A stretch of DNA of 63,702 nucleotides, filler included, from Anaerolineae bacterium (GTDB taxonomy: Bacteria > Chloroflexota > Anaerolineae > B4-G1 > DUEL01), in NCBI GenBank assembly GCA_041082215.1. It is 6 parts of 6 records of this genome, joined end to end, with 100 filler letters (N's around TTAATTAATTAA, not from the genome) between each part and the next. Parts side by side here need not be neighbours in the genome. Positions count along the whole stretch, not along the records: positions 5,999 to 25,112 come from JBDOIF010000137.1; 5 more parts are not named here. One strand, 5' to 3'. The notes under the pieces are model-generated. The model made no database searches. It saw only the letters and a list, made by a program, of their open reading frames with translations, and was not told the origin of the DNA. This document shows, piece after piece, positions 5,999 through 25,212 of this stretch (position 1 is the first letter of the stretch; each line of letters opens with the position of its first letter). Both the position numbers and the translations under genes were made by a program.

Positions 5999-6383
5999 GA
6001 TTGAAACCGCAGCAGACGTGACGTCCGTCCACGCAGAACCGTTTGTGGTCCAAACGCCCAGAATCCCGACTGAGGGATTGAAACATTCGTCTGTTGTCAT
6101 CTATGATAAAGCTGCCGAGCAGGTCCAAACGCCCAGAATCCCGACTGAGGGATTGAAACACCTGCCCGCAAGCAAGAACATCGCTGAGGATTTCCAAGTC
6201 CAAACGCCCAGAATCCCGACTGAGGGATTGAAACACCTTCAGCGATTCAATCCCCGCCTCTACAAGGCCCGGTCCAAACGCCCAGAATCCCGACTGAGGG
6301 ATTGAAACACAGAGGATGGCCGGATCGTCCCCGAGGAGAGCTCCGGGTCCAAACGCCCAGAATCCCGACTGAGGGATAGGGAA
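5999..6383 (+). CRISPR. CRISPR array, trailer end: 37-bp repeat GTCCAAACGCCCAGAATCCCGACTGAGGGATTGAAAC, 5 spacers visible
   Basis: Partial repeat 5999-6007; identical repeats 6048-6084, 6123-6159, 6198-6234, 6272-6308; degenerate terminal repeat 6347-6383; spacers 40, 38, 38, 37, 38 nt; stem AATCCC/GGGATT and 3' ATTGAAAC typical of Cas6-processed class 1 repeats. Confidence 0.98.
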
Positions 6384-6468
6384 AACAAAAGTGCCTAGGA
6401 AAACAGTCCGGGGCACTACTGTTTCTTCTGCCTGTGTGAATCCATGTCCTCCTTAGAAACGCTTTCGC

Positions 6469-6497
6469 TTGACGGAATGGCAAATCGGGTTTATTCT
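6469..6497 (+). promoter_or_regulatory. sigma70-like promoter pointing into the tRNA-Gln fragment
   Basis: TTGACG-17 nt-TATTCT. Confidence 0.55.
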
Positions 6498-6517
6498 TAA
6501 AGTTGCGGCACGGCCAG

Positions 6518-6566
6518 ACAGACTTTGGATCCGTGATTCGCAGGTTCGAATCCTGCCGCCCCAGCC
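6518..6566 (+). pseudogene. 3' half of tRNA-Gln(TTG); probable att site
   Basis: Anticodon loop CTTTGGA, T arm GCAGG-TTCGAAT-CCTGC, 3' acceptor CGCCCCA-G-CC; no 5' acceptor strand (TGGGGCG) or D arm upstream. Confidence 0.8.
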
Positions 6567-6601
6567 TGGGGTTATTCTGTTGTGCTACCTCTAAAGAGAC
6601 G

Positions 6602-7960
6602 ATGAGATATCCGGTCGAACCGGCGGACTCCTCCTCCGTCTGTATGCGAAGTGTGGCGGCAGCGCTCCGGGGCGCTTTCCTGGACCCCTTCCAGATTCCT
6701 CCTGTCCAGCGGTGGGGCCTCTCCCTGATGGCCCCTCTCGGCCCCGAGGCGGTCCGGCGGGCGGTGGGATGGGGAGTCCGGTTTCGGGGCACTGCACCGG
6801 CCTGGGCGGACCGGATCACGGCTGATGGATTGGCCCGCTGGGCTGTCTCTCTATACGCTGGCCTGCAAGGCCCCTTCGATGCTGTCCTCCTCGGTGCCCC
6901 CAACGGCGGCGTGGCCCATCTGGCCGCGGCTCTCGGAGTCCCCTTCCTTTCCCAGCACTTCCTCATCAGCTTCCGCGACCCCACCGACCCCGACGACATC
7001 CGCACCTACTTCGACCACGGCACAGCCCTGGCCCGCCGTATCCTCCAGCGGGAGCCGATGGTGGCGGTGATCAACCACTACGATCCTCTCCACGATCGGT
7101 ATCTGGTCCGGTGGGTCAACCATATCCGCCTCAAGCTGCTCGATCTGCCGGAGGCGTACCGGACCTTTATCCAGGAGCGGCTCCGACCCGGCGGCACGCT
7201 GATCTTCACGGATTGCCGGTACTCCTGGCTCCAGTATCGGGTGGGGCCACGCCACACCTTCCAGGTGGGAGGACTGGGGGATGTGGCCGACCGGGAGTTC
7301 CTGGAGGGGAGGCCGGAGATCGAAGCCGTGCGCGGAGCACCAGGCGGGTGGAGATTGGAGGGCATGCCCTTAGAAGAGCGGCCCGAGTCGGAATGGGGGG
7401 CAGAGCCGCCACTGCGGGAGGTGGTGGAGACCTTCGCCCATGCCCACGGCTACCGGTTCGTCGCCCTGGAGGGGGATCATCCGGAAGGGTACGCCCGGCT
7501 GGCGCTGGAGGCCCACCGATGGCTGAGTGAAGTGGAAGGACGGAACCCCCAGGGAACGCTGGTCGAGGTGTTCACCCAGACCAATCCGACCGCCCCTCTG
7601 GCCTCGCGGCTTCTCCCCCTCTGGCTGCCCTTCAACTGCACCGACAGCCTCCGCTTCCTGCAACAGATGCGGGGGGAGTTGCCCGCCGACAGGCCGGTGC
7701 TCCTCACCCCCCTTTCCAATTTCGTCCAAACCTTCGATACGGCAGGATGGGAGGCTTATCAGGAGGCACTGACGGGGATGGACCTGCGGGTGCTGGGGGT
7801 GCGGGAGCGGCTGTTCCCTTCCGATCCGGCGGGGCTGTGGAAGCCAGCGCGGATGCTCTCCCGCTGGTGTGCAAAACACCCGGACCCGGTCCGGGTGCGG
7901 CTGGATGCGGCTCAGCTCAGGCTCCTCGGGCAGGACTCGAACCTGCAACCAACCGGTTAA
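6602..7960 (+). CDS. Hypothetical protein (~452 aa)
   Basis: Long ORF with host-like codon usage; LLGAPNGGVAHLAAALG motif; start uncertain; 3' end overlaps tRNA-Asn on the opposite strand. Confidence 0.75.
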   Translation: MRYPVEPADSSSVCMRSVAAALRGAFLDPFQIPPVQRWGLSLMAPLGPEAVRRAVGWGVRFRGTAPAWADRITADGLARWAVSLYAGLQGPFDAVLLGAPNGGVAHLAAALGVPFLSQHFLISFRDPTDPDDIRTYFDHGTALARRILQREPMVAVINHYDPLHDRYLVRWVNHIRLKLLDLPEAYRTFIQERLRPGGTLIFTDCRYSWLQYRVGPRHTFQVGGLGDVADREFLEGRPEIEAVRGAPGGWRLEGMPLEERPESEWGAEPPLREVVETFAHAHGYRFVALEGDHPEGYARLALEAHRWLSEVEGRNPQGTLVEVFTQTNPTAPLASRLLPLWLPFNCTDSLRFLQQMRGELPADRPVLLTPLSNFVQTFDTAGWEAYQEALTGMDLRVLGVRERLFPSDPAGLWKPARMLSRWCAKHPDPVRVRLDAAQLRLLGQDSNLQPTG

Positions 7961-7994
7961 CAGCCGGCCGCTCTACCTGTTGAGCTACCGAGGA
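7922..7994 (-). tRNA. tRNA-Asn(GTT)
   Basis: TCCTCGG/CCGAGGA acceptor stem, GCTC-AACAGGTA-GAGC D arm, CCGG-CTGTTAA-CCGG anticodon arm, GCAGG-TTCGAGT-CCTGC T arm; CCA not fully encoded. Confidence 0.97.
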
Positions 7995-8008
7995 TCGCTT
8001 GCGCTCAC

Positions 8009-8037
8009 ATTATACCTCGAACCCCGACACACGTCAA
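8009..8037 (-). promoter_or_regulatory. tRNA-Asn promoter
   Basis: TTGACG(8037-8032)-17 nt-TATAAT(8014-8009). Confidence 0.85.
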
Positions 8038-8053
8038 GCACCTTTCAGAACGC

Positions 8054-8245
8054 GGGCGTATTTCAATTTCGGGGCGAGTGGTCCTCTCGCCCGCCGGTGG
8101 ATCGCGAATCCCACGGATGGCTCGAATACGGCGAACAGGAGGGATACCTGCTCCATTCGCGGTATTCGTTTCCATTCGCGCCATTCGAGTTTCCCCAGGT
8201 CCGGTCCGGCCCAGGGACATCTCGCCCCCAAACGGAAATACACCT
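8054..8245 (+). mobile_element. MITE, full-length 192 bp
   Basis: ~25-bp imperfect TIRs; flanks TCAGAACGC / TTAGAACGC (9-bp TSD, 1 mismatch); near-identical to 12964-13155. Confidence 0.92.
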
Positions 8246-8384
8246 TTAGAACGCTGAGGGCGCTGAGGACCGGAGGATTTTCTGCGCCTCTGTGCCCTCC
8301 GTGTCTCTGAGGTCCTTCTTTTGAACGGGAATGGCGCGAATGGGGAGGAGTGATGCAACTGGTCGGGGCAGCAGGGGAGGAGAG

Positions 8385-10862
8385 GTGCGAAAGCGGCTCC
8401 TTCTAGCTGTTGTATTGACCCTCCTGATGCTTGGCACAGGAGCGGGAGGGACCTTTTTTCGCAAACTGGTAGTCGCTCTTCCTTCCCCTGATACGCTCTA
8501 TGAACACCAGACCGGCGCCTCCGCCCGCATCCTTGACCGGCATGGCCGTCTCCTCTACGAGATCGCCGACCCCCACGTGGGCCGCCACTTCCCGATCCCC
8601 TTGCAGGAAATCCCTCTCCCCTGCCGACAGGCTACCATAGCTACAGAGGATGCCAGCTTCTATGCCAACCCCGGCGTGGATGTGATGGGCATCCTCCGCG
8701 CCGTCTGGATCAACCTGCGGGGCGGAGAGGTGCTGGCCGGAGGTTCCACCATCACCCAGCAACTGGCCCGCAACCTCCTCCTGACCCCTCAGGAGCGGGG
8801 CGAGCGGACCCTGCTCCGCAAGCTGCGGGAGTCCATCCTCGCCTGGCGCATCGCCCGCACCTACTCCAAAGACGAGGTGCTGGCCCTCTACCTCAACGAG
8901 GTGTACTACGGCAACCTGGCCTACGGGATCGAGGCCGCAGCCCGCGCCTATTTCGGTAAGGGGGTGGCGGAGCTGGACCTGGCGGAATGTGCCCTGCTGG
9001 CCGGACTCCCCCAGTCCCCCGCCACCTACGATCCTCTCAGCGACCTCGAGGCAGCGCGGAAGCGGCAAAGGACGGTCCTCCGCCTGATGGTTGAGCAGGG
9101 GTATATCACCGAGGAACAGGCCCGACTCGCCGCTCAGGAGCGGCTCCATTTCGCCGCCACTCCTTTCCCCATCGAAGCACCCCACTTTGTCATGTTCGTC
9201 CGCGCCTGGCTGGAGGAGACCTTCGGCCTGGAAGCGCTCTACACCGAGGGGCTGGTGGTGACGACCACCCTGGACCTGGACCTTCAGCATACGGCGGAGC
9301 GGGTGGTGCGTCGCCACCTGGCCCGGCTGTCCCGGGCCACAGAGGGCAGCCCACTGCACGACGTGAACAACGCGGCACTGGTGGCCCTCACCCCCTACAG
9401 GGGGGAGATTCTGGCGATGGTGGGTAGCCCCGATTATTTCGACCCGGTCATTGACGGGGCGGTCAACGCGGCGCTGGCGCTTCGCCAGCCGGGGTCGGCC
9501 ATCAAGCCGATCGTCTATGCCGCTGCCTTCGACCCACGCCGCGACACTCCCCTCACCCCCGCCTCGGTCCTCCTGGACGTGCGGACCGTCTTCCCCACCC
9601 GGGAGGGACGCCCCTACGTGCCGACGAACTATGACCGTCGCTTCCACGGCCCTGTCTCGGCGCGGGAAGCCCTGGCCTGTTCTTACAACGTCCCGGCCGT
9701 CCGCGTCCTTCAGGAGGTGGGGGTGGAGCAGATGGTCACCCTGGCCCACGACCTGGGACTCTCCAGCTTCGGCGGAGGGGGACGGTTTGGCCTGGCGCTG
9801 GCGCTGGGGGGTGGGGAGGTGCGGCTGCTGGAGCTGACCGGCGCCTATGGGGCCTTCGCCAGCGGCGGCCGACGGGTAGATCCGGTGGCGGTGCTGGAGG
9901 TGCGGGACGCGGCCGGAAAGCTACGTTACCGCGCCCCCTCCGGCCCCGGTCCCCAGGTGATGGACCCCCGGGTTGCCTATCTGATCACCGACATCCTCTC
10001 CGACAACGAGGCCCGCGCCCCCGCTTTCGGCCCGGCCAGTGTGCTGGCCCTCTCCCGCCCGGCGGCGGCCAAGACCGGCACCACCTCCGACTGGCGGGAT
10101 AACTGGACGGTGGGATACACGCCGCAGCTTGTGGTGGGGGTGTGGGCCGGCAACGCCGACGGGAGGCCCATGGTCTACGTTTCCGGCATAGAAGGGGCAG
10201 GCCCCATCTGGCACGATTTTATGGAGGCGGCCCTGCGGGGCCAACCGGCGCTCTCCTTCCCCGAGCCGCCGGGCCTGGAGCGGGTGCGGGTCTGCCTCCC
10301 CTCCGGCCTCCTTCCCACTCCCTACTGCCCCCGGACCCGGGCGGAGCTCTTCATCGCCGGCACGGCCCCCACCCGGCCCGACGACTGGTACCGTCCGGTG
10401 CGGACCGACGCGGCGACGGGACTGCCCGCCGGAGCGGATACCCCGCCGGAGCGGATAGTGGAGCGGGTTTACATCTTTCCCCCGCCAGAGGCATGGGAAT
10501 GGGCGCGGGAACAGGACTGGCCCCTGGGGCCGGTGTCCCAAAGCCGCCCGCCGACCGGAGGGCAACCGGAGGCCGGAGGACTTGTCCTCACCTCGCCGGA
10601 CCCTGGCTCCATTTACCGGCTGTCTCCGGTCGTCCCGGCCCCGTATCAGTCCGTCCGTGTGGCGGCCCGTCCGACCGGAGAGGTAGCGGTGGCGCAGGTC
10701 GCTTTGTACGTAGACGGGGAGTTGCTGGCGAGCTTCCAGGCTCCACCTTTTGAGACGTTCTGGCAACTGGTGCCCGGAGAGCACGTCTTTCTGGCGGAGG
10801 GGGTGGATGAGGAAGGCCGCCCCCTTCGGAGCAGCCCGGTCACTGTTTACGTCTACCAGTAG
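8385..10862 (+). CDS. pbpC: Class A penicillin-binding protein (PBP1C/1A-like)
   Basis: Transglycosylase TEDASFY, GGSTITQQLARN, RKLRE; transpeptidase SAIK, SYN, KTGT; C-terminal Ig-like domain; GTG start after GGAGG. Confidence 0.85.
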   Translation: MRKRLLLAVVLTLLMLGTGAGGTFFRKLVVALPSPDTLYEHQTGASARILDRHGRLLYEIADPHVGRHFPIPLQEIPLPCRQATIATEDASFYANPGVDVMGILRAVWINLRGGEVLAGGSTITQQLARNLLLTPQERGERTLLRKLRESILAWRIARTYSKDEVLALYLNEVYYGNLAYGIEAAARAYFGKGVAELDLAECALLAGLPQSPATYDPLSDLEAARKRQRTVLRLMVEQGYITEEQARLAAQERLHFAATPFPIEAPHFVMFVRAWLEETFGLEALYTEGLVVTTTLDLDLQHTAERVVRRHLARLSRATEGSPLHDVNNAALVALTPYRGEILAMVGSPDYFDPVIDGAVNAALALRQPGSAIKPIVYAAAFDPRRDTPLTPASVLLDVRTVFPTREGRPYVPTNYDRRFHGPVSAREALACSYNVPAVRVLQEVGVEQMVTLAHDLGLSSFGGGGRFGLALALGGGEVRLLELTGAYGAFASGGRRVDPVAVLEVRDAAGKLRYRAPSGPGPQVMDPRVAYLITDILSDNEARAPAFGPASVLALSRPAAAKTGTTSDWRDNWTVGYTPQLVVGVWAGNADGRPMVYVSGIEGAGPIWHDFMEAALRGQPALSFPEPPGLERVRVCLPSGLLPTPYCPRTRAELFIAGTAPTRPDDWYRPVRTDAATGLPAGADTPPERIVERVYIFPPPEAWEWAREQDWPLGPVSQSRPPTGGQPEAGGLVLTSPDPGSIYRLSPVVPAPYQSVRVAARPTGEVAVAQVALYVDGELLASFQAPPFETFWQLVPGEHVFLAEGVDEEGRPLRSSPVTVYVYQ

Positions 10863-10885
10863 GACAACTCGCAAGAGTTATCCTG

Positions 10886-12853
10886 CTATTCCATTGCCGG
10901 AAGCACAAAGGTGAAGACGGAGCCGACGCCCGGCCAGCTCTCCACCCAGATGCGCCCCCCGTGCCGGTCAATGACCGATTTGACAATCGCCAGCCCCAGT
11001 CCCGTTCCTTCCACCTCTTCCGTCTCGGGCGCATGGACCCGGTAGAACCGCTCGAAGATATAGGGCTGATCGGGCAGGGGGATCCCGATGCCGTTGTCGG
11101 CCACGCGGACGACGACGTGGCCGTCGTCCTCCGTCGCTTCTACTGCGATCCATCCTCCTTCCTGGGTGTACTTGATGGCGTTGCTCAGCAGGTTCTCCAC
11201 CGCTTGCCGCAGCCGGCGAGGGTTGCCCCGGATCAGCGGCAGGGGCCGTCGCTCCCAGCGCAGTTCCTGGTTTTTCTCTTTGGCCAGCGGCTGGAACTCT
11301 GTCACGACGGCGTCAATGATCCCTTCCAGGTGGAGCGGCTCCAGCTCCAGATCGTAACCGGCTTCGATCCGCCCCAGGTCCAGGAGGTCGCTGATCAGGT
11401 TGGTGATATGCCGGATGCTATCCCGCACCCGCTCGACGAAGAGCTGTTGCTGTTGGTTCAGCGGTCCTGCCTTCTCCAGAAGGTCCACATATCCCCGGAT
11501 GGTGGTCAGGGGTGTCCGCAGATCGTGGGAGACGGTGAAGACGAATTCCGTCTTGATCCGGTCCAGCTCCTTCAGATGGGTGATATCCTGCATCATCAGG
11601 GCGTAGCCCACCCCTTCCACTGGCGTCAACTGGGCGCTGTAACTCTGGCCGGTGGAGGTGGTCACTTCGGCATGGAGCGTCCGGTCCGCCTTTCGCGCAG
11701 CCTGAAAGAGGTCCCGCAGGACAGGGTGGGAGATCAGCTTGGGGGCCGGGCTGCCGATGGACTCGGTGGAGATCCCCAGCGCCACTCTGGCGGCGGGGTT
11801 ACAGAGGAGGATCCGCAGCTCGGGGTCAAGGATCACCACCGCCTCTTCGGATTCCCGCAGCACGGCCTCCAGTTTCCGCCGTGCCGTCTCGGTTTCCTCA
11901 TAGAGGCGGGCGTTCTCCACTGCGACGGCCGCGTAGTCGGCGAGGGCACAGAGAAGCCGGACGTCGTGGGTGGTGAAGGGGCGTTCCGACTCCCGATTGC
12001 TCACACCCAGGATACCGATAACCCCCCGGTCCGGCACACTCATAGGGGCGTAGACGAGGGAACGGACCAGGTAGCCCGTCACGACCTTGGAGGGGCTGTC
12101 TACCACAAGGAGCGGTTCGCCGCTCTCCACCACCTGACCGGCAAGCGAGTCCTGGACGCGGATGCGAAGACCCCGCGCTTTCTTCTCGTCTACGTTCTTG
12201 GCTGCCCGCAGGACCAGCTCGCCGCTTTCCGGCTCTCTCAGCAGCAGCAATCCCTCCTCGGCCCTGGTGAGAAAGACAGCCGCTTCCACTACACGGGTAA
12301 GGACCACCTCCAGGTCCAGGCGGGAGGTCACCGAGCGGCCGATGGAGTAGAGTGTGTTCAGCTCCTGGATCTGCTGCTGGAGCTGCCGGTTGCTCTCCTC
12401 GAGCTGCTCGACCAGGCGGTCCCGTTCCCGCCGCAGCCGGACCTCTTCCAGGGCCCTTTCGACCGATTGGGCCATCTCCTCCGGCTCGAAGGGTTTGATG
12501 ATGTAGTCCCGCACTCCCAGCCGGAACGCCTGGACGGCCAGCCCCTCAGAGCCGTGGGCCGTCATAAAGATAACGGGGATGGAAAGCCCCCGTTTTCGAA
12601 GTTCACGGAGGAGCTGGATGCCGGTCAGCCCTGGCATCTGTTCATCCAGTATGATCAGGTCGGGTCGCTCCTCCTCTGCCAGGCGCAGCCCTTCTGTCCC
12701 GTCGCTGGCCAGCAACGCGCGGTAGCCAGCCGGCTCGAGGACCATCTCGCGGAGGACGGCCTGAATTTCTGCGCTGTCGTCCACGACCAGAACGCGCTCG
12801 CGTGCCGGAAAGTCCTCTCCGGAGTGCTCAGGGCCTGTAATCTGTGCTTGCAC
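10886..12853 (-). CDS. Hybrid sensor kinase REC-GAF-PAS-HisKA-HATPase
   Basis: VLVVDDS, LIILDEQMPG, SHDLRTPL, NLLSNAIKY, DNGIGI, GTGLGL. Confidence 0.93.
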   Translation of the reverse strand: MQAQITGPEHSGEDFPARERVLVVDDSAEIQAVLREMVLEPAGYRALLASDGTEGLRLAEEERPDLIILDEQMPGLTGIQLLRELRKRGLSIPVIFMTAHGSEGLAVQAFRLGVRDYIIKPFEPEEMAQSVERALEEVRLRRERDRLVEQLEESNRQLQQQIQELNTLYSIGRSVTSRLDLEVVLTRVVEAAVFLTRAEEGLLLLREPESGELVLRAAKNVDEKKARGLRIRVQDSLAGQVVESGEPLLVVDSPSKVVTGYLVRSLVYAPMSVPDRGVIGILGVSNRESERPFTTHDVRLLCALADYAAVAVENARLYEETETARRKLEAVLRESEEAVVILDPELRILLCNPAARVALGISTESIGSPAPKLISHPVLRDLFQAARKADRTLHAEVTTSTGQSYSAQLTPVEGVGYALMMQDITHLKELDRIKTEFVFTVSHDLRTPLTTIRGYVDLLEKAGPLNQQQQLFVERVRDSIRHITNLISDLLDLGRIEAGYDLELEPLHLEGIIDAVVTEFQPLAKEKNQELRWERRPLPLIRGNPRRLRQAVENLLSNAIKYTQEGGWIAVEATEDDGHVVVRVADNGIGIPLPDQPYIFERFYRVHAPETEEVEGTGLGLAIVKSVIDRHGGRIWVESWPGVGSVFTFVLPAME

Positions 12854-12963
12854 CTTGTCCTCTCGGCCAGAGAATCAACGAAGAGGTCCCCCGAAGGGCT
12901 CCCCCAAAACCTGTTCCTGCCCTATATCATAACACAGCTTTTGTATAAAGGGTAGTGCCTTAT

Positions 12964-13155
12964 GGGCGTATTTCAATTTCGGGGCGAGTGGTCCTCTCGC
13001 CCGCCGGTGGATCGCGAATCCCACGAATGGCCCGAATACAGCGAACAGGAGGGATACCTGCTCCATTCGCGGTATTCGTTTCCATTCGCGCCATTCGTGT
13101 TTCCCCAGGTTCGGCCCGGGCCAGGGACATCTCACCCCCAAACTGAAATACACCT
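12964..13155 (+). mobile_element. MITE, full-length 192 bp
   Basis: Flanks GTGCCTTAT / GTGTCTTAT (9-bp TSD, 1 mismatch); same TIRs as the other copies. Confidence 0.92.
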
Positions 13156-13282
13156 GTGTCTTATTCTCAGCGTCCTCGACCTCGAATGAGGGCAGAAACT
13201 TGCACGGAAATCGGTCGCGTGTAAAATGGACCCTGTGTGGAGGCTTCCGGCAGCCGCTTCAACGGCGGATGCCTCCTGAACT

Positions 13283-14596
13283 GTGGAGGAAAATGTGGAA
13301 GAGGAGATTGACCTCCGAAAATATGTCCAGGTGCTAGTTCAATACTGGAAATGGATAACAGGCGCGGCTCTCATTGCGGCCACGGCTGCGCTGGTGGTGA
13401 GCTTCCTGCTTCCCCCCACCTATGAGGCCACGGCTCTGGTGGCGGTGACGAAGCCCCGTTACGTGATGCAGTTCGATCCCCGTTTTGAGACGCTGGATAA
13501 CATCCAGCCGGCATACAAGGCGTATCCAGAGCTGGCCTCCAGCGATGACCTGCTCCGGGATCTGATGGAGCGCCTCGACCCTCTCCCCCGGGGCGTTCAG
13601 ACGCTTCGAGATGTAAAGGAAATGGTGGAAGCAGAGGGGGGAGCGGACCCCAGCATAATTCGCCTGACCGTGCGGGCACGGGACCCGGAGGAGGCGGCCC
13701 GGATCGCCAACGTCTGGGCTGCGTTGTTCGTTGAACGGGCCAATGAGCTTTACGGGACCCACAATGAGGCCGAGCTCCACTTCTTTGAAGAACAGCTACA
13801 GCGGGCAGAGGCCGAGCTTCAGTCGGCGGAACAGGCGCTGATCGAGTTTCAGGCCCGCAATCAGCAGGCGATCCTGGAGGCCCAGCTCTCTTCGGCCCAA
13901 CGGGACCTGGAGGACTATCTGATCGAGCAGCGAGAGCTCGAGCGGGTGGTCCGCAACGCCCGGATGCTACAGGATCGGGTCGCCGATTGGCCAGCGGAAG
14001 CCCAGGCAACTCCGGGCGACGATCTGACGGCACTGCTGCTGGAACTGCGGGCCTTTGACGTCCAGACGTCCAGAGAAGGCTCCGAGGAGGTCGAGCTGGG
14101 CACAGGCTCTTCCATCTGGCTGCAGATCTCTGATGCGACGCTCCTTGCGTCGGGGCGGACGGCCGGCGAGTTGAGGGCCTTTCTGGACGGGCTGGCGACG
14201 ACGCTGGAGGCCAGGTCCGCGGAGATCGAAACTCGCATCGCGGCGCTGGAGCCCCGGATCCTGAGCCTGCAGCAGCAGTTGCAGGAAATGGAGGCCGAGC
14301 GGGATCGGTTGACGCGGGCACGGGATGTAGCCCAGGAGACGTATATGACGCTGGCCCGGAAGGTGGAGGAGACGCGGATCGCTGTGGAAGAAGTCAGCGG
14401 CGAGGTGCGGCTGGCCAGCCAGGCGGCAGCACCCCAAAAACCAGCAGGTCCCAGAAAGCTGCTCAACACCGCCGTGGCGGGGGTGTTAGGGTTGATGCTG
14501 GGGGTGTTGGGAGCCTTTGTCGTCGAATGGTGGCGGCAGGAGCCTCCCACCGAACCCTCAGGCCGGCAGGAAGCCGAACCTGTGGATGAGAGATGA
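13283..14596 (+). CDS. Polysaccharide chain-length determinant (Wzz/GumC family)
   Basis: EEEIDLRKY, N- and C-terminal TM helices, coiled coil, P..P..P motif before the last TM. Confidence 0.85.
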   Translation: MEENVEEEIDLRKYVQVLVQYWKWITGAALIAATAALVVSFLLPPTYEATALVAVTKPRYVMQFDPRFETLDNIQPAYKAYPELASSDDLLRDLMERLDPLPRGVQTLRDVKEMVEAEGGADPSIIRLTVRARDPEEAARIANVWAALFVERANELYGTHNEAELHFFEEQLQRAEAELQSAEQALIEFQARNQQAILEAQLSSAQRDLEDYLIEQRELERVVRNARMLQDRVADWPAEAQATPGDDLTALLLELRAFDVQTSREGSEEVELGTGSSIWLQISDATLLASGRTAGELRAFLDGLATTLEARSAEIETRIAALEPRILSLQQQLQEMEAERDRLTRARDVAQETYMTLARKVEETRIAVEEVSGEVRLASQAAAPQKPAGPRKLLNTAVAGVLGLMLGVLGAFVVEWWRQEPPTEPSGRQEAEPVDER

Positions 14597-15405
14597 ACAA
14601 GGACCCCATCGAGAGGCTTGTAGCGCTCGGTTTTTCTGAGTACGAAGCAAAGGCCTATGTGGCCCTGCTTCGGAAGAGCCCCGTCACCGGTTATGAGCTG
14701 GCCAAGCTCTCCGGCGTCCCCCGCTCGATGATCTACGAGGTCCTGGGCAAGCTCGTGGCCCGTGGAGCGGCGATGACGCTCCATCAGGAGGATAGCGTCA
14801 AGTACGCGCCGGTGCCTGCGGAGACCTTCCTGGAGTTGCTCCATCGCGAACACGAGACCCTCATTACCTCTCTTAAAGCAGACCTTGTTTCCCTTGCGTC
14901 ATCTTCCGACCTGGAATATGTGTGGAACATCGAAGGGTACGATAACATCCTGGCCCGGGCGAAGGAGATGATCAGGAGAGCGGGAAAGTGCATCTATATT
15001 TCCCTGCTTCCCTCCTCCTTCCCTCCCCTCCGCTTCGCCCTGGAAGAGGCTGTTGAGCGCGGCGTGCGCGTCATTGTCTATACGACCCAGGCCCTTGCCT
15101 TCCCGGGCGGGCGGGTAGTCGTTTCTCCCATATCCGAAAAGGCCCTCGGTCAGGCCGGCGGGCTGGGCTTGATCCTGGTGGTGGATGGGGAGGAGGTCCT
15201 CATCGGCGAATGGATCTCCGTCACCCGCGCCCGCGCCTCCTGGACACGCAGCCCTCTCTTCGTCTTCATCGCCGAGCACCACCTCCGGACCGACCTCTAC
15301 CTCCCCCAGGTCCTGGCTTTGCTGGGGGAGCGGGCACGAGAGGTGATCCGGGAAGAGGATTGGGAGCTGTTCGCCCGGGCGATGGAAAGCCACATTGACG
15401 AATAG
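14593..15405 (+). CDS. TrmB-family transcriptional regulator
   Basis: LGFSEYEAKAYVALL, SGVPRSMIYEVL, C-terminal effector domain with VVDGEEVLIG. Confidence 0.9.
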   Translation: MNKDPIERLVALGFSEYEAKAYVALLRKSPVTGYELAKLSGVPRSMIYEVLGKLVARGAAMTLHQEDSVKYAPVPAETFLELLHREHETLITSLKADLVSLASSSDLEYVWNIEGYDNILARAKEMIRRAGKCIYISLLPSSFPPLRFALEEAVERGVRVIVYTTQALAFPGGRVVVSPISEKALGQAGGLGLILVVDGEEVLIGEWISVTRARASWTRSPLFVFIAEHHLRTDLYLPQVLALLGERAREVIREEDWELFARAMESHIDE

Positions 15406-15467
15406 TCCCCCATGGGCTGGCCGGTGGCTGGTCCCTCTCCTGTTTCCCGGTGATCCGGACCTGATGC

Positions 15468-15517
15468 TTGACAGCCGGAAAAATCTGTGTATAATCGTGC
15501 GTAGTTATTATTATAAC
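15468..15517 (+). promoter_or_regulatory. Promoter of the exporter operon with candidate operator
   Basis: TTGACA-16 nt-TATAAT; inverted repeat GTTAT-TATT-ATAAC at 15504-15517. Confidence 0.65.
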
Positions 15518-15653
15518 GTCTATTGAAGGGCCTCCGTCTATCATCGGACCCGGTTGGAGGGCAGTGCCCTGCGGAGGGATTCGCTGGCTACTGCGACGAT
15601 GCCATGCCAGCGCGGTGTCGGTTTCTGCCCGGTGTGGGTGAGGAGATAGCCCT

Positions 15654-17885
15654 ATGATCTGGAAGAACCTCTTTCGCCGCAAAGGTCGTACCATTCTCAC
15701 TCTGATCGGGATCTCCGTTGGCGTGACCGCCATCATCGCGCTGGGCGCCGTGGCACAGGGCCTGAGGTCCGGCTTCACGGCGATGACCCGGAGCAGCCAG
15801 GCGGACCTGGTGCTCAGCCAGGCGGGCGCTATGAGTGCGCTGCTCAGCAGCGTGGATGAGGCGGTGGCCGACGAAGTAGCTGTCCTGCCGGGGGTGGCTG
15901 ACGTGGACGGCATGCTCTACACCAATGCCCTGATTGACGAAAAGACGTATCTCATCCTCTTCGGCTACGACCCCGACGGCTTTGCCATAGGCCACTTCCG
16001 CATCGTCGAGGGGCAGTCGCTGGCCGACGCACGGGCGGTGCGGGGCAAGCCCCTCATCCTGGGCAGACACGCAGCACAGAGCATGGACCTGCACGTGGGC
16101 GATTCCCTGCACGTCACTGGCAAAGTGTTCCGCGTCGTCGGCATCTATGAGACGGGGAATGGGTTGGAGGACCGCGCGGCGATCATCCCGTTGCAGGAGG
16201 CCCAGGCGCTGGCCCTGCAGCCCCGTCGTGTCTCTATGCTGTATATCAAGCTGGACGACCCCGACATGGCTGAACAGGTGCGGGCACGGATCGAGCGCCG
16301 TTTCCCGGACCTCAACGTGGCTACATCGGCAGGGTTCGCCAGCGAGGAGCAGTTGTTCGAGATGCTGGACGCGATGGCGATGGCGGTTGCAGCTCTGGCG
16401 GTCGTCATCGGCGGCGTCATCATGACCAACACGCTCTGGATGTCGGTCTTCGAGCGCACACGCGAGATCGGCGTGTTGCGCTCTCTGGGCTGGCGACGGC
16501 GGCAGGTGGTGGGTCTGATCCTGGGGGAGGCCCTCCTCCTGGCCCTGCTGGGTGGGCTGATAGGCAGCACCCTGGGAGTTCTGTCGGTCCTGGCGCTGGG
16601 GCGTTCCAGCTCCATCCTGGGTGTCTTCGGGTCCCAGTTGACCCCTGCCCTCTTTGCCCGCGCGCTGACCACCGTGATTGTGCTGGGATTGGTCGGCGGG
16701 GCTTACCCGGCCTGGTGGGCCAGCCGGTTGCTGCCGGTAGAGGCTTTGCAGTACGAAGGCGGCGACGGCCGGCATGCGGCCCGTCTGCCCGGTGGGATGG
16801 CGGTGCGCAACCTCTGGCGCAGACGGACGCGCACGGCGCTGACACTGCTGGGCATCGGGGTGAGCATCGCTGCTATCATCGCCCTGGGAGGATTGGCCGA
16901 GGGCATGCTGGGCGCGTTTACCAGGATGGTGCTGGATAGCCAGACCGACCTGTTCGCCGCCGAGGCAGGGGTTGATGCCGACTTCAGCGCCATTGACGAA
17001 CGGGTGGGGGCACGTATTGCCGCCTTCCCCGAGGTGAGAGCTGTCTCCGGCATGTTCTGGACCGGCACCAGCACCGATAAGATGCCGATGCTCATCGTTG
17101 CCGCCTTCCACCCCCGCGAGGTCGCTATCCGCCGTTACCGCATCATCGAGGGTAGATCGCTCGAGGGTCGTCGGGAAGTCATCGTCGGTAGGATGGCGGC
17201 GGAGCAGATGGGGCTGGAAGTGGGGGACACCCTTCGTATGATGAACAGCACCTTCCGCGTCGTCGGCATCTACGAGACCGGACAGGCCCTTGACGATGCT
17301 GGTGTGGTCATCGGGCTGCGGGAGGCTCAGGCCCTGATCGGAAAGCCTCATCAGGTGCAGTTCTACTTCATCAGCCTGCACGATCCCACCCGGGCCGCGG
17401 CGGTGAGGGAAAAGCTGGCTGCGGCTTTCCCCGAGGTCGAATTCTCCCTGACCTCTGAGCTGGGTGAGGCGGTCAGCGACTTCCGGGTGCTTCAGGAAGG
17501 GGTGGACCAGATCTCGTTTCTGGCCGTGCTCATCGGCATGGTTGGGATATTGAATACGATGTTGATGAGCGTGCTGGAGCGCACGCGCGAGATCGGCGTG
17601 TTGCGCTCCCTGGGCTGGCGGCGATGGCAGGTGATGGGGATATTCCTGCGGGAGTCGCTGGTGTTGGGGATAAAGGGCGGCCTGTGTGGAATTCCCCTGG
17701 GACTGGCGCTGGGTGCGATGGCCGGCTCGGCGGGGATATGGGGAGGGGCGGTGGAGCCAGCCTATACCCCCCGGATGTTCGTGCAGGCAGTTGTGGTGGC
17801 AGCCGTAGCTGGTATCCTGGGCGGCCTCTACCCGGCCTGGCGGGCCACCCGCATGCGGCCGGTGGAAGCGCTGCGGTATGAGTAG
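15654..17885 (+). CDS. ABC transporter permease, tandem MacB/FtsX modules
   Basis: Two copies of NL.RR..RT.LT...ERTREIGVLRSLGW...P.EAL.YE. Confidence 0.92.
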   Translation: MIWKNLFRRKGRTILTLIGISVGVTAIIALGAVAQGLRSGFTAMTRSSQADLVLSQAGAMSALLSSVDEAVADEVAVLPGVADVDGMLYTNALIDEKTYLILFGYDPDGFAIGHFRIVEGQSLADARAVRGKPLILGRHAAQSMDLHVGDSLHVTGKVFRVVGIYETGNGLEDRAAIIPLQEAQALALQPRRVSMLYIKLDDPDMAEQVRARIERRFPDLNVATSAGFASEEQLFEMLDAMAMAVAALAVVIGGVIMTNTLWMSVFERTREIGVLRSLGWRRRQVVGLILGEALLLALLGGLIGSTLGVLSVLALGRSSSILGVFGSQLTPALFARALTTVIVLGLVGGAYPAWWASRLLPVEALQYEGGDGRHAARLPGGMAVRNLWRRRTRTALTLLGIGVSIAAIIALGGLAEGMLGAFTRMVLDSQTDLFAAEAGVDADFSAIDERVGARIAAFPEVRAVSGMFWTGTSTDKMPMLIVAAFHPREVAIRRYRIIEGRSLEGRREVIVGRMAAEQMGLEVGDTLRMMNSTFRVVGIYETGQALDDAGVVIGLREAQALIGKPHQVQFYFISLHDPTRAAAVREKLAAAFPEVEFSLTSELGEAVSDFRVLQEGVDQISFLAVLIGMVGILNTMLMSVLERTREIGVLRSLGWRRWQVMGIFLRESLVLGIKGGLCGIPLGLALGAMAGSAGIWGGAVEPAYTPRMFVQAVVVAAVAGILGGLYPAWRATRMRPVEALRYE

Positions 17886-17991
17886 GCGACTTGCAATACA
17901 GAGACACGGGGACGCGAGGACGCGGAGACGGGGAGATAAGTGATCCGAAACACATAACACACAAGACGAAAAACAGGCGAGGAGGCGGAAG

Positions 17992-19161
17992 ATGAAGAGA
18001 GCTGTAATGGCAGGCCTGGCAGCGTTCCTGATAGCAATGCTCGTCGGTTGTGGGACCGTGGAGCGGGAGACGTTGACGCCGGAGCCACAGGCAGGGTTCA
18101 GGCAGGTCGTCTCCGTCTCCGGCAAAGTGGTGCCGGCAGTGTGGGCCACCCTCAGCGCCCAGACCGGCGGTATGGTGACGGAGGTGCTGGTGGAGCCGGG
18201 CGAGGAGGTGGAGGCGGGCGACCTGCTCATCCGGCTCGACCCCACCGACGCCCAACTGGCCGTTCGGCAGGCGGAGGCTCAGCTTTCAGCAGCCCAGGCC
18301 CAACTGGCGCTCCTTCAGGCTGGCGCCCGGCCGGAGGACATCGCCGCTGCCGAGGCCCAGCTTCACGCAGCCGAAGCGGCGCTGGCCCAGGCTGTGGCCC
18401 AGCGGGATCAGGTGGTCGGCGGAGCGACAGAGGCGGAGATCGCCGCTGCCCGCGCCCAACTGGCTGCCGCCCTTGCCGGAGAGAAGGCCGCCCGCGACGC
18501 CTATGACCAGTTGCGCCAGGCCGGGATTCACGGCTGGGTGGAAGAAGAGGCAGTCCTGCGGTTGCGCTCTGCAGAGGAAGCCCGTGCTGCAGCCGAGGCG
18601 CAACTGTCCCATCTGGAAGCAGGCGCTCCCGCCCAGGTCCAGGCAGCAGAGGCAGCCGTCTGGGCGGCGGCAGCCCAGCGGGACGCGGCCCAGGCCCAGT
18701 TGGACCGGCTCCTGGCAGGTCCCACCGCTGAGGAAATCGCCGCCGCGCAGGCAGCCGTGGCCCAGGCAGAAGCCCAGCTCTCGGCAGCCCGCGTCGCCCT
18801 GGCCCGCTGCGAGGTCCGCGCCCCCTTCGCCGGTACCGTCGGCCTGGTCCACGTGCGGGTCGGCGAGCTGGTCGCTCCGGGACAGCCCCTGCTGACCCTG
18901 GGCGACCTGACCGTCCTGCGGGTGGAGACCACCGACCTGGATGAGGTGGATGTAGCGCGGGTCCAGGTCGGCCAGAGGGCAACCGTCACCTTCGACGCCC
19001 TGCCCGACCGGCTCTTCACGGGCCGTGTGGCCCGCATCTCCCCGATGGCCGAGCCGGGCAGCGGCGGGGTCCATTACACTGCCATCATCGAGCTGGAGGA
19101 ACTGGCTCCATCCATCCGCTGGGGAATGACGGCGTTTGTGGATATCGAGGTGACGGAATGA
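17992..19161 (+). CDS. Efflux periplasmic adaptor (HlyD/MacA-like) lipoprotein
   Basis: LVGC lipobox, lipoyl halves, Ala/Gln-rich helical hairpin, RAPFAGTV. Confidence 0.9.
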   Translation: MKRAVMAGLAAFLIAMLVGCGTVERETLTPEPQAGFRQVVSVSGKVVPAVWATLSAQTGGMVTEVLVEPGEEVEAGDLLIRLDPTDAQLAVRQAEAQLSAAQAQLALLQAGARPEDIAAAEAQLHAAEAALAQAVAQRDQVVGGATEAEIAAARAQLAAALAGEKAARDAYDQLRQAGIHGWVEEEAVLRLRSAEEARAAAEAQLSHLEAGAPAQVQAAEAAVWAAAAQRDAAQAQLDRLLAGPTAEEIAAAQAAVAQAEAQLSAARVALARCEVRAPFAGTVGLVHVRVGELVAPGQPLLTLGDLTVLRVETTDLDEVDVARVQVGQRATVTFDALPDRLFTGRVARISPMAEPGSGGVHYTAIIELEELAPSIRWGMTAFVDIEVTE

Positions 19162-19259
19162 CGTATGACGTATGACGTATGACGTATGACGTATGACGAA
19201 TGGCGTCAAACGTCAAACGTCATACGTCACACGTCAGGCGTCGAACGTCAGGCGTGAAG
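19151..19259. repeat. Inverted pair of heptamer arrays
   Basis: (TGACGTA)x5 at 19159-19193 followed by 8 degenerate CGTCANN units at 19204-19259, the reverse-complement orientation. Confidence 0.9.
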
Positions 19260-19271
19260 TGGGGTGGAGTT

Positions 19272-20093
19272 ATGGAGAAAGAGATCATCGTCGAAACGCG
19301 GGACCTGGTCAAGGTGTACGGCGACGGAGCGGAGGTGCGGGCACTGGACGGAGTGAACCTGCGGGTGGCCCGGGGGGAGTTCGTCTCGGTGATGGGACCC
19401 TCCGGCTCCGGGAAGTCCACCCTGCTCAATATGATCGGCGCCCTGGACCGGCCCACGAGCGGGCAGGTGCTGGTGAATGGGGAGGACCTCGCCCGGGTGC
19501 GCGATCTGGATACCTTCCGCGCCCGGACCGTCGGCTTTGTCTTCCAGCTCCACAATCTGATCCCCACCCTCACCGCCCGGGAAAACGTCGAGGTGCCGAT
19601 GATGGGGCAGCCGGTGGGCCGGGGGGAGCGGCATCGGTGGGCAAAGGAGCTGCTGGAGATGGTGGGGCTGGCGGATCGGATGGACCACCTGCCCAACCAG
19701 CTCTCCGGCGGTGAGCGACAGCGGGTCGCTATTGCGCGGGCGCTGGCCAACCGCCCCGCCCTGGTCCTGGCCGATGAGCCTACAGGCAACCTGGACTCTC
19801 AGAGCGGGGCGGAGGTGATCGAGCTGATGCACCGGCTTAACAGGGAGCTGCACACCACTTTCATCATCGTCACCCACGACCCGGCGGTGGCCCGACGGAC
19901 GGAGCGGGTGCTGATTATGCGGGATGGGCGCGTCGTGCACGAATATGCGGTGGGGACCCCATTCGAGGAGGACCTGGCCGCTTTCCGGCGTTCCGAGCTG
20001 GGGCGGGCGATCCTGGCAGGGGACGAAGGGGCGATGGCCCGGTTCGGCCCCGATGAGCGGGCCGTGCTGCGACGGTTGCTGGAAGGGGTATAA
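19272..20093 (+). CDS. ABC transporter ATP-binding protein (LolD/MacB-like)
   Basis: [31 protein letters not shown]. Confidence 0.93.
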
Positions 20094-20123
20094 CGGTATA
20101 CGGCGGCAAAAGCCAGTGGAAGC

Positions 20124-20170
20124 GCGGACTCCCGAAGCCCCGGGGCACCCGAAAGGCTTCGGGAGTCCGC
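20124..20170. terminator. 16-bp perfect hairpin between convergent genes (REP-like or bidirectional terminator)
   Basis: GCGGACTCCCGAAGCC ... GGCTTCGGGAGTCCGC. Confidence 0.7.
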
Positions 20171-20193
20171 TTGGTCTTCCGCGCCGGGAACCG

Positions 20194-23100
20194 TCAGCGT
20201 GCACTCCTCAGGATGAGGGGCAGGTAGATGGTGTGATCACCGGCCATCGGATCGAGGGGGAGGCTGACGTTGTTATACTCGTTCCGTTCGGGCACCAGCC
20301 CATACTGCAGCGCCTCCGGCTGGCCCTGGGAGTTCATGCGCTGGTGGTTATCCACCTTGGCGTAAAAGGCTTCGATGGATGCGATCTGTTGCTCGGAAAA
20401 GCCGGCATGGTGGATTGTAATAATCTGGCTTTCCCCGGGCGGGATCGGGTTCACGCCAGCGTAGGTGAACCCCCACCCGTCCCACGGGTAAGAGAGGACA
20501 GGAGCGGTAAACAGGTCCAGCCAGAAGCCGCCCAGGTTATCCGGGTTCCAGGCGATCCCGGCGCCCTGGTTTTCCACCACAACGGTGAAAGTGACTGGCC
20601 GGTTCGGGACAAGCGGCCGGGGCTCGAAGGTGAAATCGGTCACGACCAGGTCGGGGACGCCGATGGATAGGTAGACCGAGTTGTTCGTTGGGTTGGCATC
20701 CTCGCTTAAGCCCCCGCTTCCGGTGATGGAAAAGGGTGTGCTCACCGTCAGGGCGCCGATCTGGGGATCGGCGGCATAGGAGATCACGAGCTGGACGGTG
20801 AGGCCGGCGGAGCCAGCAGGCAGGTTGCCGACCGTATAGGAGTAGGTCCGCCCTCCGGCAGGGTTCCAGTTGTATCCGACATAGGTGGTGCTGAGGGGTA
20901 GCCTGGCCTGTATCCAGACGTTCTCTGCGTCCATCCGGCCTGCGTTGCTGTAGGTGATGGTGTAGGTCATCGGCTTGCCGGGGGAGAAGAGGCTGGGGGT
21001 ATGGACGACTGAGAGGGTGAGGTCGGGTCGCGTGGTGATGGCGTCCACGTCCTCCACCTCGATAGGCGACGAGAGGGCCGGCCCGTTCATCACAGCCCGG
21101 TTGATCACAGTGCGCGCGCCCGCCGGCAGCGGATCGAGGACGCGCACTGTGAGGCGGGCCTGCACGCTGGTCTGCGCGACCAGGATGGGGATCGAATAGA
21201 CCACCCGGCCCCCTGAGATCAGTGAGCAGCTCCCCGGGCTGATGCTGCAGCCGAGGTACTGGATGTAGTTGGGCAGGGTGTCGGTGATCACCAGGCTGTA
21301 AGCGTTCTCGTTGCCCGAGTTGGTGGCGACGAGGGTGTACGTCAGCGTCTGGCCAGCCTCAACCGTCGAGGTGCCGTCGCTCTTGGAGAAGGAAAGGATT
21401 GGCGCGCTGTGGACGGTGGTCCCTTCCGCGGCCTGGAGGGCTGCCCCCTCCGCATAGCTCAGCCGGGCTGTCGTCGTCAGCATTGTGCCGTTGGGGAGAG
21501 GAAGCTCGACCCCGGTGCGGATGGTGATCTGGCCCGTTCCCCCCTCGCCGGGGATCGTATCAACATTCCAGTACCAGGTCCGCCCGCCTCCGTTCGTCGG
21601 CGGCGGTGTGGCGCTGAGGAAGTTGAGGTGGCTGTCCAGCGTGGCCGTGATGAGCACGCCGGTGGCGTCGGCGTTGCCGGTGTTGGTGTACCGCAGCGTG
21701 TAGGTAAGCTGTGCCCCCGCCTCCACAGGGTCAGGCCGATCAACCAGGCTGAAGGCGACCTGAGGGGAGGAGGAGACCTGCGTGGGTTCGGTGAAGCTGG
21801 CCGGAGGGGACTCATTACTGGAGACGGTGACGGTGTTGATCAGGAAGGTGCCGTTGGGCAGAGGGCTGTCCACGCTCACCTGCACCAGGATCGTGCGGCT
21901 CTGCCCGGCGTTCAGCGTCCCCAGATACCAGACGTTGTTCCCCGCACTGGGAGGGGGATTGGCGGAGAGGAAGTTGACCCGGCTGTCGTAGGTATCGGTG
22001 AGGATAACGTTCGTCGCCGGGGCCGAGCCGTTGTTCTCGCAGACGATGGCATAGGCCAGCTGGCCGCCCGCCTGGACCGGGTCGGGGACGTCGGTCTGAT
22101 TCACGTCCAGGTCGGTCTCCGAGAGGGCCTGGGTGGTCTCTGTAACGCTGATGGGGCTGGTCTGATCGGTGTCCAGGGTGACCACGTTGGTCAGCACGGT
22201 CCCCACCGGAAGCGGCGTATGGACCCGCACGAGCACCTCTATGGTCCGCGAGTGGTCCACCTCCAGCAGGCTGAAGTGCCACTCGTTATCGGTGCCTGGT
22301 GCAGGGGCCGGGTTGGCGGAGATGAAGGAGACGTTGGGATCGTAATCCTCGACCACGGTGACGCCGGTGGCGTTTTCATTGCCGGTGTTGGTGAAGACAA
22401 TGGTGTATTGGAGAATCCCGTCGGCCTGCACCGGGTCGGGCCAGTCGTCCTTGGTGATGGAGAGGACCGGCCGGGAGTGGGCCGTCGTCACCTGGGTGGT
22501 GGAGATGGGCGTGGTCTGGTCCGTATCCAGCCAGGCGGTGTTGGTCAACAACGTGCCGTTGGGCAGGGGGCGGTCAACCGTTGTGGTGATGATGATCTGC
22601 CCGGGCGTGTCCAGCGGGAGCGTCGGGAAGGTCCAGTAACGGACGTCCCCCATTCCCTGGGCGGGAGGGTTGGCGGAGACAAAGTTGATGTGGGGGTCCA
22701 GAACGTCGGTGATGAGGACGCCCGTAGCGACCTCGTTGCCTGTGTTGGTATAGGTAAGCGTGTAGACCAGCACGGCCCCCGCCTCCACCGGGTCCGGCCC
22801 GTCTTTCTTTATCAGCGTCAGCACCGGCTGGGAATGGACCGTGGTCTGTTCGGTGGCGGTGACCGGCCCGGTCTGGTCGCAGCCCAGGATGGCGTTGTTA
22901 GTGAGGAGGGTGCCGTTGGGGAGCGGCTTTTCCACGTGTACCCGGAGAAGGACCTGGCCGGACTCCTGCGGCGCAAGCGGGTTCAGGTGCCAGTAGGGGT
23001 TGCCAGCGATGAAGCCGGTGGGGGAGGGGACGGCGCTGGCATAGACGGTGTTGGAGTCCAGTGTGTCGGTGAGAGCCAGGCCGGTGGCGGTCTGATTGCC

Positions 23101-24804: not shown

Positions 24805-25212
24805 CTCTCACTCCCCCATTCGCCCATACGGAACAGACAGGGCGTGGGGCAAGGCCCCGGAGCTGTCTGTTGTGGATTCTCTCCATCCTTACTATCTTAG
24901 TGGATGGGGGTAGATAAAAGGTGAGAGAGATTCCTAAAAAAGGATTAAAAGGAGGTAATTGTGTTAAACTGGAGGTAACCGTGAAGTGTGGATTCCTAAC
25001 CGCCCTGGGGGGTCGGGGTTGGACGGGTCGGCGTGTCTGTAGGAGGTGGGAGGGGTGTATCCGTTGGCGGCACAGGGGTATCGGTTGGCCGGGGCGGCGA
25101 TGTGGGCGGGGGNNNNNNNNNNNNNNNNNNNNNNNNNNNNNNNNNNNNNNNNNNNNTTAATTAATTAANNNNNNNNNNNNNNNNNNNNNNNNNNNNNNNN
25201 NNNNNNNNNNNN

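Follow-up and report, generated by a model that had tools for sequence, protein, structure and literature searches.

The CRISPR array with which contig C134 begins is probably the far, trailer end of a WYL/type I-D-family module in an island bounded by tRNA-Gln sequence, a reading to which we assign a probability of roughly 0.6 and for which we infer the joint between C134 and a second contig, C112. Throughout, G000 denotes the genome under study (genus g1), C its contigs, L loci, and X1–X5 metagenome runs. The genome is a MAG of 174 contigs and 3.53 Mb (96% complete, 3.4% contamination, genome GC 65%), with its host placed among the hot-spring Chloroflexota, class Anaerolineae, by related sequences and by the runs that carry its DNA. 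The window, i.e., the whole 63.7-kb stretch of DNA that was analyzed, consists of six of its contigs chained by N runs and a TTAATTAATTAA linker.

The sequence-only reading had taken the array to be cargo of an integrative element with the full tRNA-Gln at its other end. In favor of this claim are the intact tRNA, the WYL gene beside it, the module layout in the relative G016, an insertion at tRNA-Gln in the relative G001, and the affinity of the WYL protein; against it stand the lack of an integrase at the ends, of type I-D cas genes in the bin, of an end overlap between C112 and C134, and of an empty site for G000 in the relatives. From these comparisons of sequence, we consider the description of the array as cargo of an integrative element to be a good inference and not a demonstration.

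The array, its trailer, and the tRNA-Gln block on C134

Contig C134 occupies positions 5999–25112 of the window, and its first base falls inside the CRISPR array. The joint with C133 (5899–5998, unstranded) is artificial, consisting of N runs and the TTAATTAATTAA linker, and thus the C133 DNA to the left of the array (O-antigen ligase etc.) is no true neighbor. The assembled part of the array (5999–6346, plus strand, with the leader side off the contig) opens with a 9-nt repeat tail at 5999–6007 and holds four exact copies of the 37-nt repeat GTCCAAACGCCCAGAATCCCGACTGAGGGATTGAAAC, starting at 6048, 6123, 6198 and 6272, together with five spacers of 37–40 nt (6008–6047, 6085–6122, 6160–6197, 6235–6271 and 6309–6346). 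These are followed by a degenerate terminal repeat at the trailer end (6347–6383, plus strand), the first 31 nt of which equal the repeat while the last 6 have diverged. As the repeat ends in ATTGAAAC, the array is read from left to right on the plus strand, making the degenerate copy its old end. Both the array and the end coordinate of 6383 given in the sequence-only reading are borne out, as is its remark that C134 shows neither cas nor integrase genes, which follows from the contig beginning inside the array. The repeat occurs on C134 only, being absent from the rest of the G000 genome. The search for spacer targets that had been proposed at the same time yielded none: zero of the five spacers are present in IMG/VR (exact match of the first 28 nt), there is no self-target in the genome itself, and the spacers have no match among the fetched loci.

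Between the array and the tRNA-derived block lies a 137-nt trailer (6384–6520, plus strand), close to the earlier estimate of ~135 bp for this distance, which would be the island-side arm of attR. Its GC content is 48%, as compared to 65% for the genome, and it matches none of the other fetched loci. A further degenerate repeat, or repeat tag, had been suggested by eye within the trailer; the best repeat-like match in 6384–6620 is, however, at chance level, with 349 of 500 shuffles reaching its score.

The block itself (6521–6567, plus strand) is an exact 47-nt direct repeat, made up of 46 nt of the 3′ part of tRNA-Gln(TTG) plus 1 nt, that we propose as the attR core. It runs from the 5′ strand of the anticodon stem through the 3′ end of the tRNA and one extra base, and is identical, at 47 of 47 positions and in the same sense, to C112:15976–16022 (blastn, E 7e-20). 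The sequence-only reading had recognized a tRNA-Gln(TTG) fragment starting at the anticodon arm, and both the fragment and its starting point are real, but the span that it gave (6518–6566) is 3 nt too long at the left edge, where two of the three additional bases do match the tRNA. The fragment is not called as a tRNA by ARAGORN, and gives a sub-threshold partial tRNA match with Rfam (20.3 bits vs a gathering score of 29, E 0.69). Among the tRNA-Gln(TTG) genes compared, the block is identical to G000's own alone, and differs at 1–5 positions from those of all 25 relatives. Both copies in G000 are of the host type, and differ from the type found in genus g5 at two positions, which makes a recent arrival with a g5-type attachment site unlikely.

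We also considered whether a decayed 5′ half of the tRNA precedes the block. The candidate in the 40 nt upstream is at chance level (400 of 2000 shuffles reach the G000 score), as is the corresponding candidate before the copy in G001 (521 of 2000 shuffles); a possible promoter-like similarity was noted by eye in G001. At 6558–6582, a short hairpin, GCCCCAGCCTGGGGT, with a T-rich run behind it spans the border between the tRNA piece and the flank; its terminator-like score is no more frequent than in shuffled sequence. Rightwards of the block lies a gene of 452 aa (6602–7960, plus strand) that we take as chromosomal flank. It is without a Pfam or NCBIfam family, its product is 69–79% identical to proteins in three relatives from two other genera, and a weak Atlas lead (0.90) points to SAM-methyltransferase-like clusters. 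Its homologue in G001 (L012, G001:C24) is found 4.7 kb from the cas6 end of a type III operon. The 3′ end of the G000 gene overlaps by 41 nt with an intact tRNA-Asn(GTT) on the opposite strand (7920–7994, minus strand), which is part of the right flank and separate from the feature discussed here.

The intact tRNA-Gln and evidence for insertion at its 3′ side

The intact tRNA-Gln(TTG) that the sequence-only reading had proposed to look for in the assembly is present as a single copy in the genome, at C112:15948–16021 (ARAGORN), in the orientation that would be expected of attL. On the same strand, 135 nt 3′ of this tRNA, is a WYL-domain gene (Pfam PF13280, E 6e-7) that runs off the end of the contig, with 303 codons present vs 341 in the G016 orthologue. 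An intact tRNA with no island beside it had been named, together with relatives showing a simple local loss of a tRNA, as the outcome that would speak against integration; what adjoins the tRNA is instead a CRISPR-linked gene, and not housekeeping DNA. The further expectation of a cas operon and the same repeat next to the tRNA holds in part, in that the CRISPR-linked WYL regulator is there, whereas the type I-D cas genes are absent from the bin and the repeat is confined to C134.

With regard to the integrase expected at the same place, none is found on C112. The bin contains four PF00589 matches, on C100, C148, C31 and C24, none of them beside tRNA-Gln, and no match to PF00239 (serine recombinase). 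Neither assembled end of the proposed segment carries an integrase, and the 137 nt between the last repeat and the block and the 135 nt between the tRNA and the WYL gene leave no room for one. Among the hallmarks of a tRNA island, the direct-orientation copy of the tRNA 3′ part at the far end is present (47/47), and the integrase inside the segment is missing from the assembled ends. None of the PF00589 matches listed for 40 relatives shares a contig with tRNA-Gln(TTG), and none of those listed falls within the 17 kb from tRNA to array end in G016. The 2.6-kb contig C31 (L009) encodes a tyrosine recombinase truncated at a TAG codon and, after it, a ParA-type ATPase, and may derive from a plasmid or an integrative element; nothing was found to connect C31 with the tRNA-Gln locus. 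End overlaps of 15–55 nt were sought among C112, C134 and C38, with none detected.

In a tree of WYL proteins, the G000 protein (g1) nests inside the g5 clade with a support of 100/100, a value that refers to the nesting and not to the place of G000 within the clade. It is 78–85% identical to the g5 proteins, which are 74–91% identical among themselves, and 58% identical to that of g2 (G013). Two flank proteins, in contrast, put g2 closer to G000 than g5 (51–53% vs 39–47% identity for one, and 78–79% vs no homologue for the other). The foreign affinity expected of cargo is therefore seen in the one gene tested, and the WYL gene looks horizontally acquired. The nesting within g5, taken together with the module being found at differing sites within that genus, speaks for horizontal movement, as judged from this single gene.

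The relatives provide evidence of insertion at the same tRNA. In G001, from a sister genus, tRNA-Gln(TTG) is followed by a 3,533-nt insert and then by a second, exact copy (44+2 nt) of its 3′ part, which begins 1 nt from the point at which the G000 copy starts. What follows the G001 copy aligns to the sequence immediately 3′ of the intact tRNA in its congeners G011 and G013 (151/170 and 131/170 positions), whereas the DNA after G001's own tRNA is identical to these at 18/170 and 40/170 positions. This is a clean comparison of attL/attR with attB, by which a 3.5-kb insertion at tRNA-Gln is proven for G001, with G011 and G013 providing the empty sites. The insert (L019, G001:C119) encodes, on the opposite strand, a large secreted repeat protein of 723 aa; by eye, it also contains a truncated HicA-like ORF and a transposase-like fragment, and no integrase was seen. 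In six g5 genomes, the upstream neighbor of tRNA-Gln is common to all while the downstream contents are six different ones, the CRISPR module of G016 among them, and in four genomes of three other genera a glmU-like operon lies downstream of tRNA-Gln, an operon that in G000 is found elsewhere, on C51. Judging from these alignments, the 3′ side of tRNA-Gln(TTG) is an insertion hot spot in this family. For G000's own flanks no empty site was found, the homologues of the two flank genes being on different contigs in every relative, and the arms beside attL and attR match none of the fetched loci, including G016. In G005 (C180:69–109), the match to tRNA-Gln(TTG) near a contig start is limited to its 5′ 41 nt, which could reflect either a tRNA gene split at the corresponding position or a break in the assembly.

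The metagenome runs bear on whether the two contigs belong to one population. The right flank of C134 is present, with 99.8% identity, in four hot-spring runs. A 201-nt contig of X1 matches 6350–6550 with zero differences and extends 30 nt rightwards beyond the 6520/6521 joint, where our bridging rule asks for 31. In X2 and X5, contigs on the block extend leftwards into the exact 5′ half of the C112 tRNA, and in X2 another contig extends rightwards into the WYL-side sequence of C112. The C112 and C134 loci occur together in nature. In X2, X3 and X5, the right flank is covered while 6401–6467 is covered by no contig, and in X2 a 1,395-nt contig runs from the 5′ side of the tRNA through the block unbroken. 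We give no weight as evidence to the empty-site form that could be read into these three runs, with the intact tRNA leading straight into the right flank, as it rests on absent Logan-contig cover and on a joint that is bridged by no record.

Type I-D modules in relatives and the proposed island

The layout proposed for G000 is found unbroken in G016, which belongs to g5, another genus of the same family: tRNA-Gln(TTG), a WYL gene with 85% identity to that of G000, type I-D cas genes, and an array follow one another contiguously on one strand over 17 kb. The module encodes Cas10d/Csc3, Csc2, Csc1, an extra Cas7/Cas5-like pair, Cas6, and a Cas4–Cas1d fusion, and its array has 13 repeats with a degenerate last repeat, after which the contig stops. 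Intact tRNA and array are thus seen on one stretch in G016, and on separate contigs in G000. The contig ends of C112 and C134 are collinear with the G016 arrangement, which suggests that they are the two ends of the same layout, with ~14–15 kb missing between them if G000 is G016-like.

In all nine relatives with at least 1 kb downstream of the WYL gene (G016, G015, G017, G012, G021, G070, G034, G023 and G024), a cas10d homologue directly follows it; G025 and G056, with too little downstream sequence, were left out of this count. This is in keeping with PMC10212523, which describes WYL regulators as companions of type I-D loci. Of the seven relatives with readable upstream context, only G016 has the WYL/I-D module next to tRNA-Gln, and the g5 modules in G015, G017, G012 and G021 are at other sites, away from this tRNA. 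The 3′ 23 nt of the C134 repeat recur in many Chloroflexota metagenome arrays, the leader-side genes of which, where present, are type I-D or I-D/III hybrid: an array sharing these 23 nt in L028 is flanked by Csc2, Cas3′, Cas6, Cas4 and Cas1d, and those in L124 and L039 lie beside I-D/III hybrid loci. The latter (L124 1–9000 and L039 800–10142) combine Csx11 and a Cmr4-like RAMP with type I-D Cas3′, Cas6 and Cas1d. No tRNAs or pieces of tRNA-Gln were found beside 16 other arrays of this repeat family, nor in the other WYL/I-D loci. The Anaerolineae type I-D modules of L170 (G016:C215, 4112–8818) and L176 (G070:C7, 12491–17236) contain an extra block, located between cas10d and csc2 or after csc1, that comprises a 727-aa ORF without a family, an ORF of 150–170 aa, and the Cas7-like and Cas5-like pair, which scores weakly as type IV Csf2/Csf3. 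These modules may represent an undescribed I-D variant.

The sequence-only reading held that the subtype could not be called. The type I-D family can now be proposed from the WYL gene, the loci of the relatives, and the repeat family: the repeat belongs to the family found with type I-D loci, and a WYL gene (PF13280) of the kind followed by cas10d in nine of nine evaluable relatives stands where the operon head would be. The type I-D signature genes cas10d/csc3, csc2, csc1 and cas3′ were not found next to the array in the G000 bin, and searches of the bin for type I-D effectors (Cas10d, Csc2, Csc1 and three more) gave zero tblastn matches at E ≤ 1e-3, with cas3_core appearing below the cut-off only. 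A complete type III-A set, Cas6, Cas1 and Cas2 included, is nevertheless encoded in the bin (C161 and C38), and therefore an array without cas genes of its own could still be used. Two further arrays in G000 have different 37-nt repeats with related 3′ tags. That with repeat GTCTGAATCGCCCCAATGCCCGGAAGGGCATTAAGAC is split between the end of C38, where it lies behind csm5-csx-cas1-cas2, and the end of C157, and that with repeat CTTGCAACCAGAGTCGATCCGCAGGGGATACTGAAAG is at the start of C70.

Taking these observations together, we infer that C112 and C134 carry the two ends of one segment. The intact tRNA-Gln on C112 would form attL, with the module occupying the variable region just 3′ of tRNA-Gln(TTG). 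The WYL regulator would be followed by an unassembled type I-D operon filling the gap, i.e., cas10d, csc2, csc1, cas3′, cas6, cas4, cas1 and cas2, then by the leader and the newer spacers, and finally by what begins C134, namely the five oldest spacers and the degenerate last repeat, the 137 nt, a 47-nt attR, and the chromosomal flank. The duplicate would have come from a circular element that bore its own copy of the tRNA 3′ part and joined the tRNA gene, within or close to the anticodon stem-loop, by site-specific recombination of the tyrosine-integrase type, and the integrase presumed to have made the repeat may since have been lost, may lie in the gap, or may have been supplied in trans.

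If this is true, a whole adaptive-immunity module of an uncultured thermophilic member of the Chloroflexota travels as, or sits in, a tRNA-bounded island, extending a pattern that has been documented mainly in Vibrio to a further phylum and a further subtype (type I-D), and this would also explain the loss of such loci from metagenome bins. That defense systems ride on tRNA-gene islands is already established biology. For annotation, the lesson is that the bin alone is insufficient to label the C134 array an orphan.

Alternative explanations and known systems

Such an orphan is nevertheless the content of one alternative, in which the type I-D cas operon has been lost, leaving the WYL gene and a short old array that is either silent or served in trans by the type III-A system. 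The absence of the I-D effector genes from a bin that is 96% complete, the presence of a full type III-A set with Cas6, Cas1 and Cas2 together with two arrays with related 3′ tags, and the mere five assembled spacers would all fit a remnant of this kind. However, C112 ends within the WYL gene and C134 starts within the array, such that the joint may simply be unassembled, binning commonly loses islands and arrays, and cas10d follows WYL in nine of nine evaluable relatives, so that we regard the loss of the operon as rather unlikely. Similarly unlikely, in our estimate, is that the 47-nt copy is a scar of the hot spot, left by an earlier, unrelated element, and that the WYL/I-D module came by homologous recombination, accretion or content replacement without ever having moved with the element that made the repeat. 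Such a history would account for the assembled ends having no integrase, for none of the listed matches lying in the 17 kb of G016, for the decayed remnant in which no integrase was seen at the same site in G001, and for the highly variable content 3′ of tRNA-Gln, and it is also compatible with the module being at non-tRNA sites in six of seven relatives with readable upstream context and with both block copies being of host type. Yet all 47 nt of the block have stayed exact, with no decayed tRNA likeness in the arm flanking it, the module begins 135 nt past attL and reaches to within 137 nt of attR, the assembled parts showing no traces of another element, and G016 has the same junction between tRNA and module. 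A variant on integration, which we put forward as speculative and hold to be quite unlikely, is that the WYL/I-D locus is a self-contained cassette without an integrase, moved in trans by a helper integrase or via the tRNA-derived repeat, that lands repeatedly at tRNA-Gln(TTG) across genera of hot-spring Chloroflexota and still varies in presence between cells of the natural population.

Explanations without any integration fare worse. The 5′ half of a second tRNA-Gln could have been deleted locally, a segment could have been duplicated by chance, or C134 and C112 could come from different organisms binned together, and the lacking contiguity of C112 and C134, the bin contamination of 3.4%, and the want of a known empty site for the G000 flanks leave some room for this. 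We consider it improbable, given that the block matches only G000's tRNA among the 26 compared, that its identity stops within 1 nt of the boundary of the proven insertion repeat in G001, that both loci are held by the same runs, and that a single segment would account for the orientation and for the CRISPR-linked gene at the opposite end. CRISPR-associated transposons keep a tRNA-matching spacer beside the array, and a tRNA-identical stretch just past the last repeat recalls such a homing guide. This resemblance is almost certainly misleading, as no repeat or repeat tag precedes the block (chance level, 349 of 500 shuffles), the 47-nt block exceeds the length of a spacer, and the modules of G016 and G070 include Cas3′, Cas4 and Cas1, with no transposase-like ORF among those scanned.

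The tRNA-bounded island that we prefer can be compared with three known systems. Tyrosine integrases of the P4/P22/HP1 kind integrate into tRNA genes with a crossover in the anticodon stem-loop, and integration into tRNA genes has reportedly been classified by its sublocation (Williams, 2002). The likeness lies in the direct repeat of 44–47 nt that reaches from the anticodon stem or loop to the tRNA 3′ end (in G001 and G000, respectively), with the whole tRNA at one boundary and a lone 3′ piece at the other (for G000, the proposed boundaries); the difference is that we identified here neither an integrase gene nor arm-type sites nor an excision product. CRISPR-Cas islands at tRNA loci are described in the Vibrionaceae, with a type I-F system beside tRNA-Met in V. 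vulnificus 93U204, a type II-B system at tRNA-Met in V. natriegens, and the excisable islands VPI-6 and GI-24 in V. cholerae (PMC6360697). In both cases (for G000, as proposed), a CRISPR-Cas locus lies in a strain-variable segment beside a tRNA gene, with attL/attR-type repeats at its bounds. The Vibrionaceae islands differ in that they carry an integrase, with excision demonstrated by PCR for two of them, whereas no integrase is seen here and the middle is unassembled; the host here is, moreover, a member of the hot-spring Chloroflexota, and the system is of the type I-D family. As CRISPR-Cas loci on tRNA-linked islands are already documented in that account (PMC6360697), G000 would be a further example in an unusual host.

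CRISPR1 of Synechocystis is plasmid-borne, while the G000 module is chromosomal and beside a tRNA, and the modules of the relatives differ further in having the extra Cas7/Cas5-like pair. Sll7009 of this locus is described as a WYL-type regulator of a type I-D system (PMC10212523, PMC4012209), and the two have in common that a WYL regulator heads the type I-D operon (in G000, the proposed one) and that the 37-nt repeat ends in ATTGAAAC.
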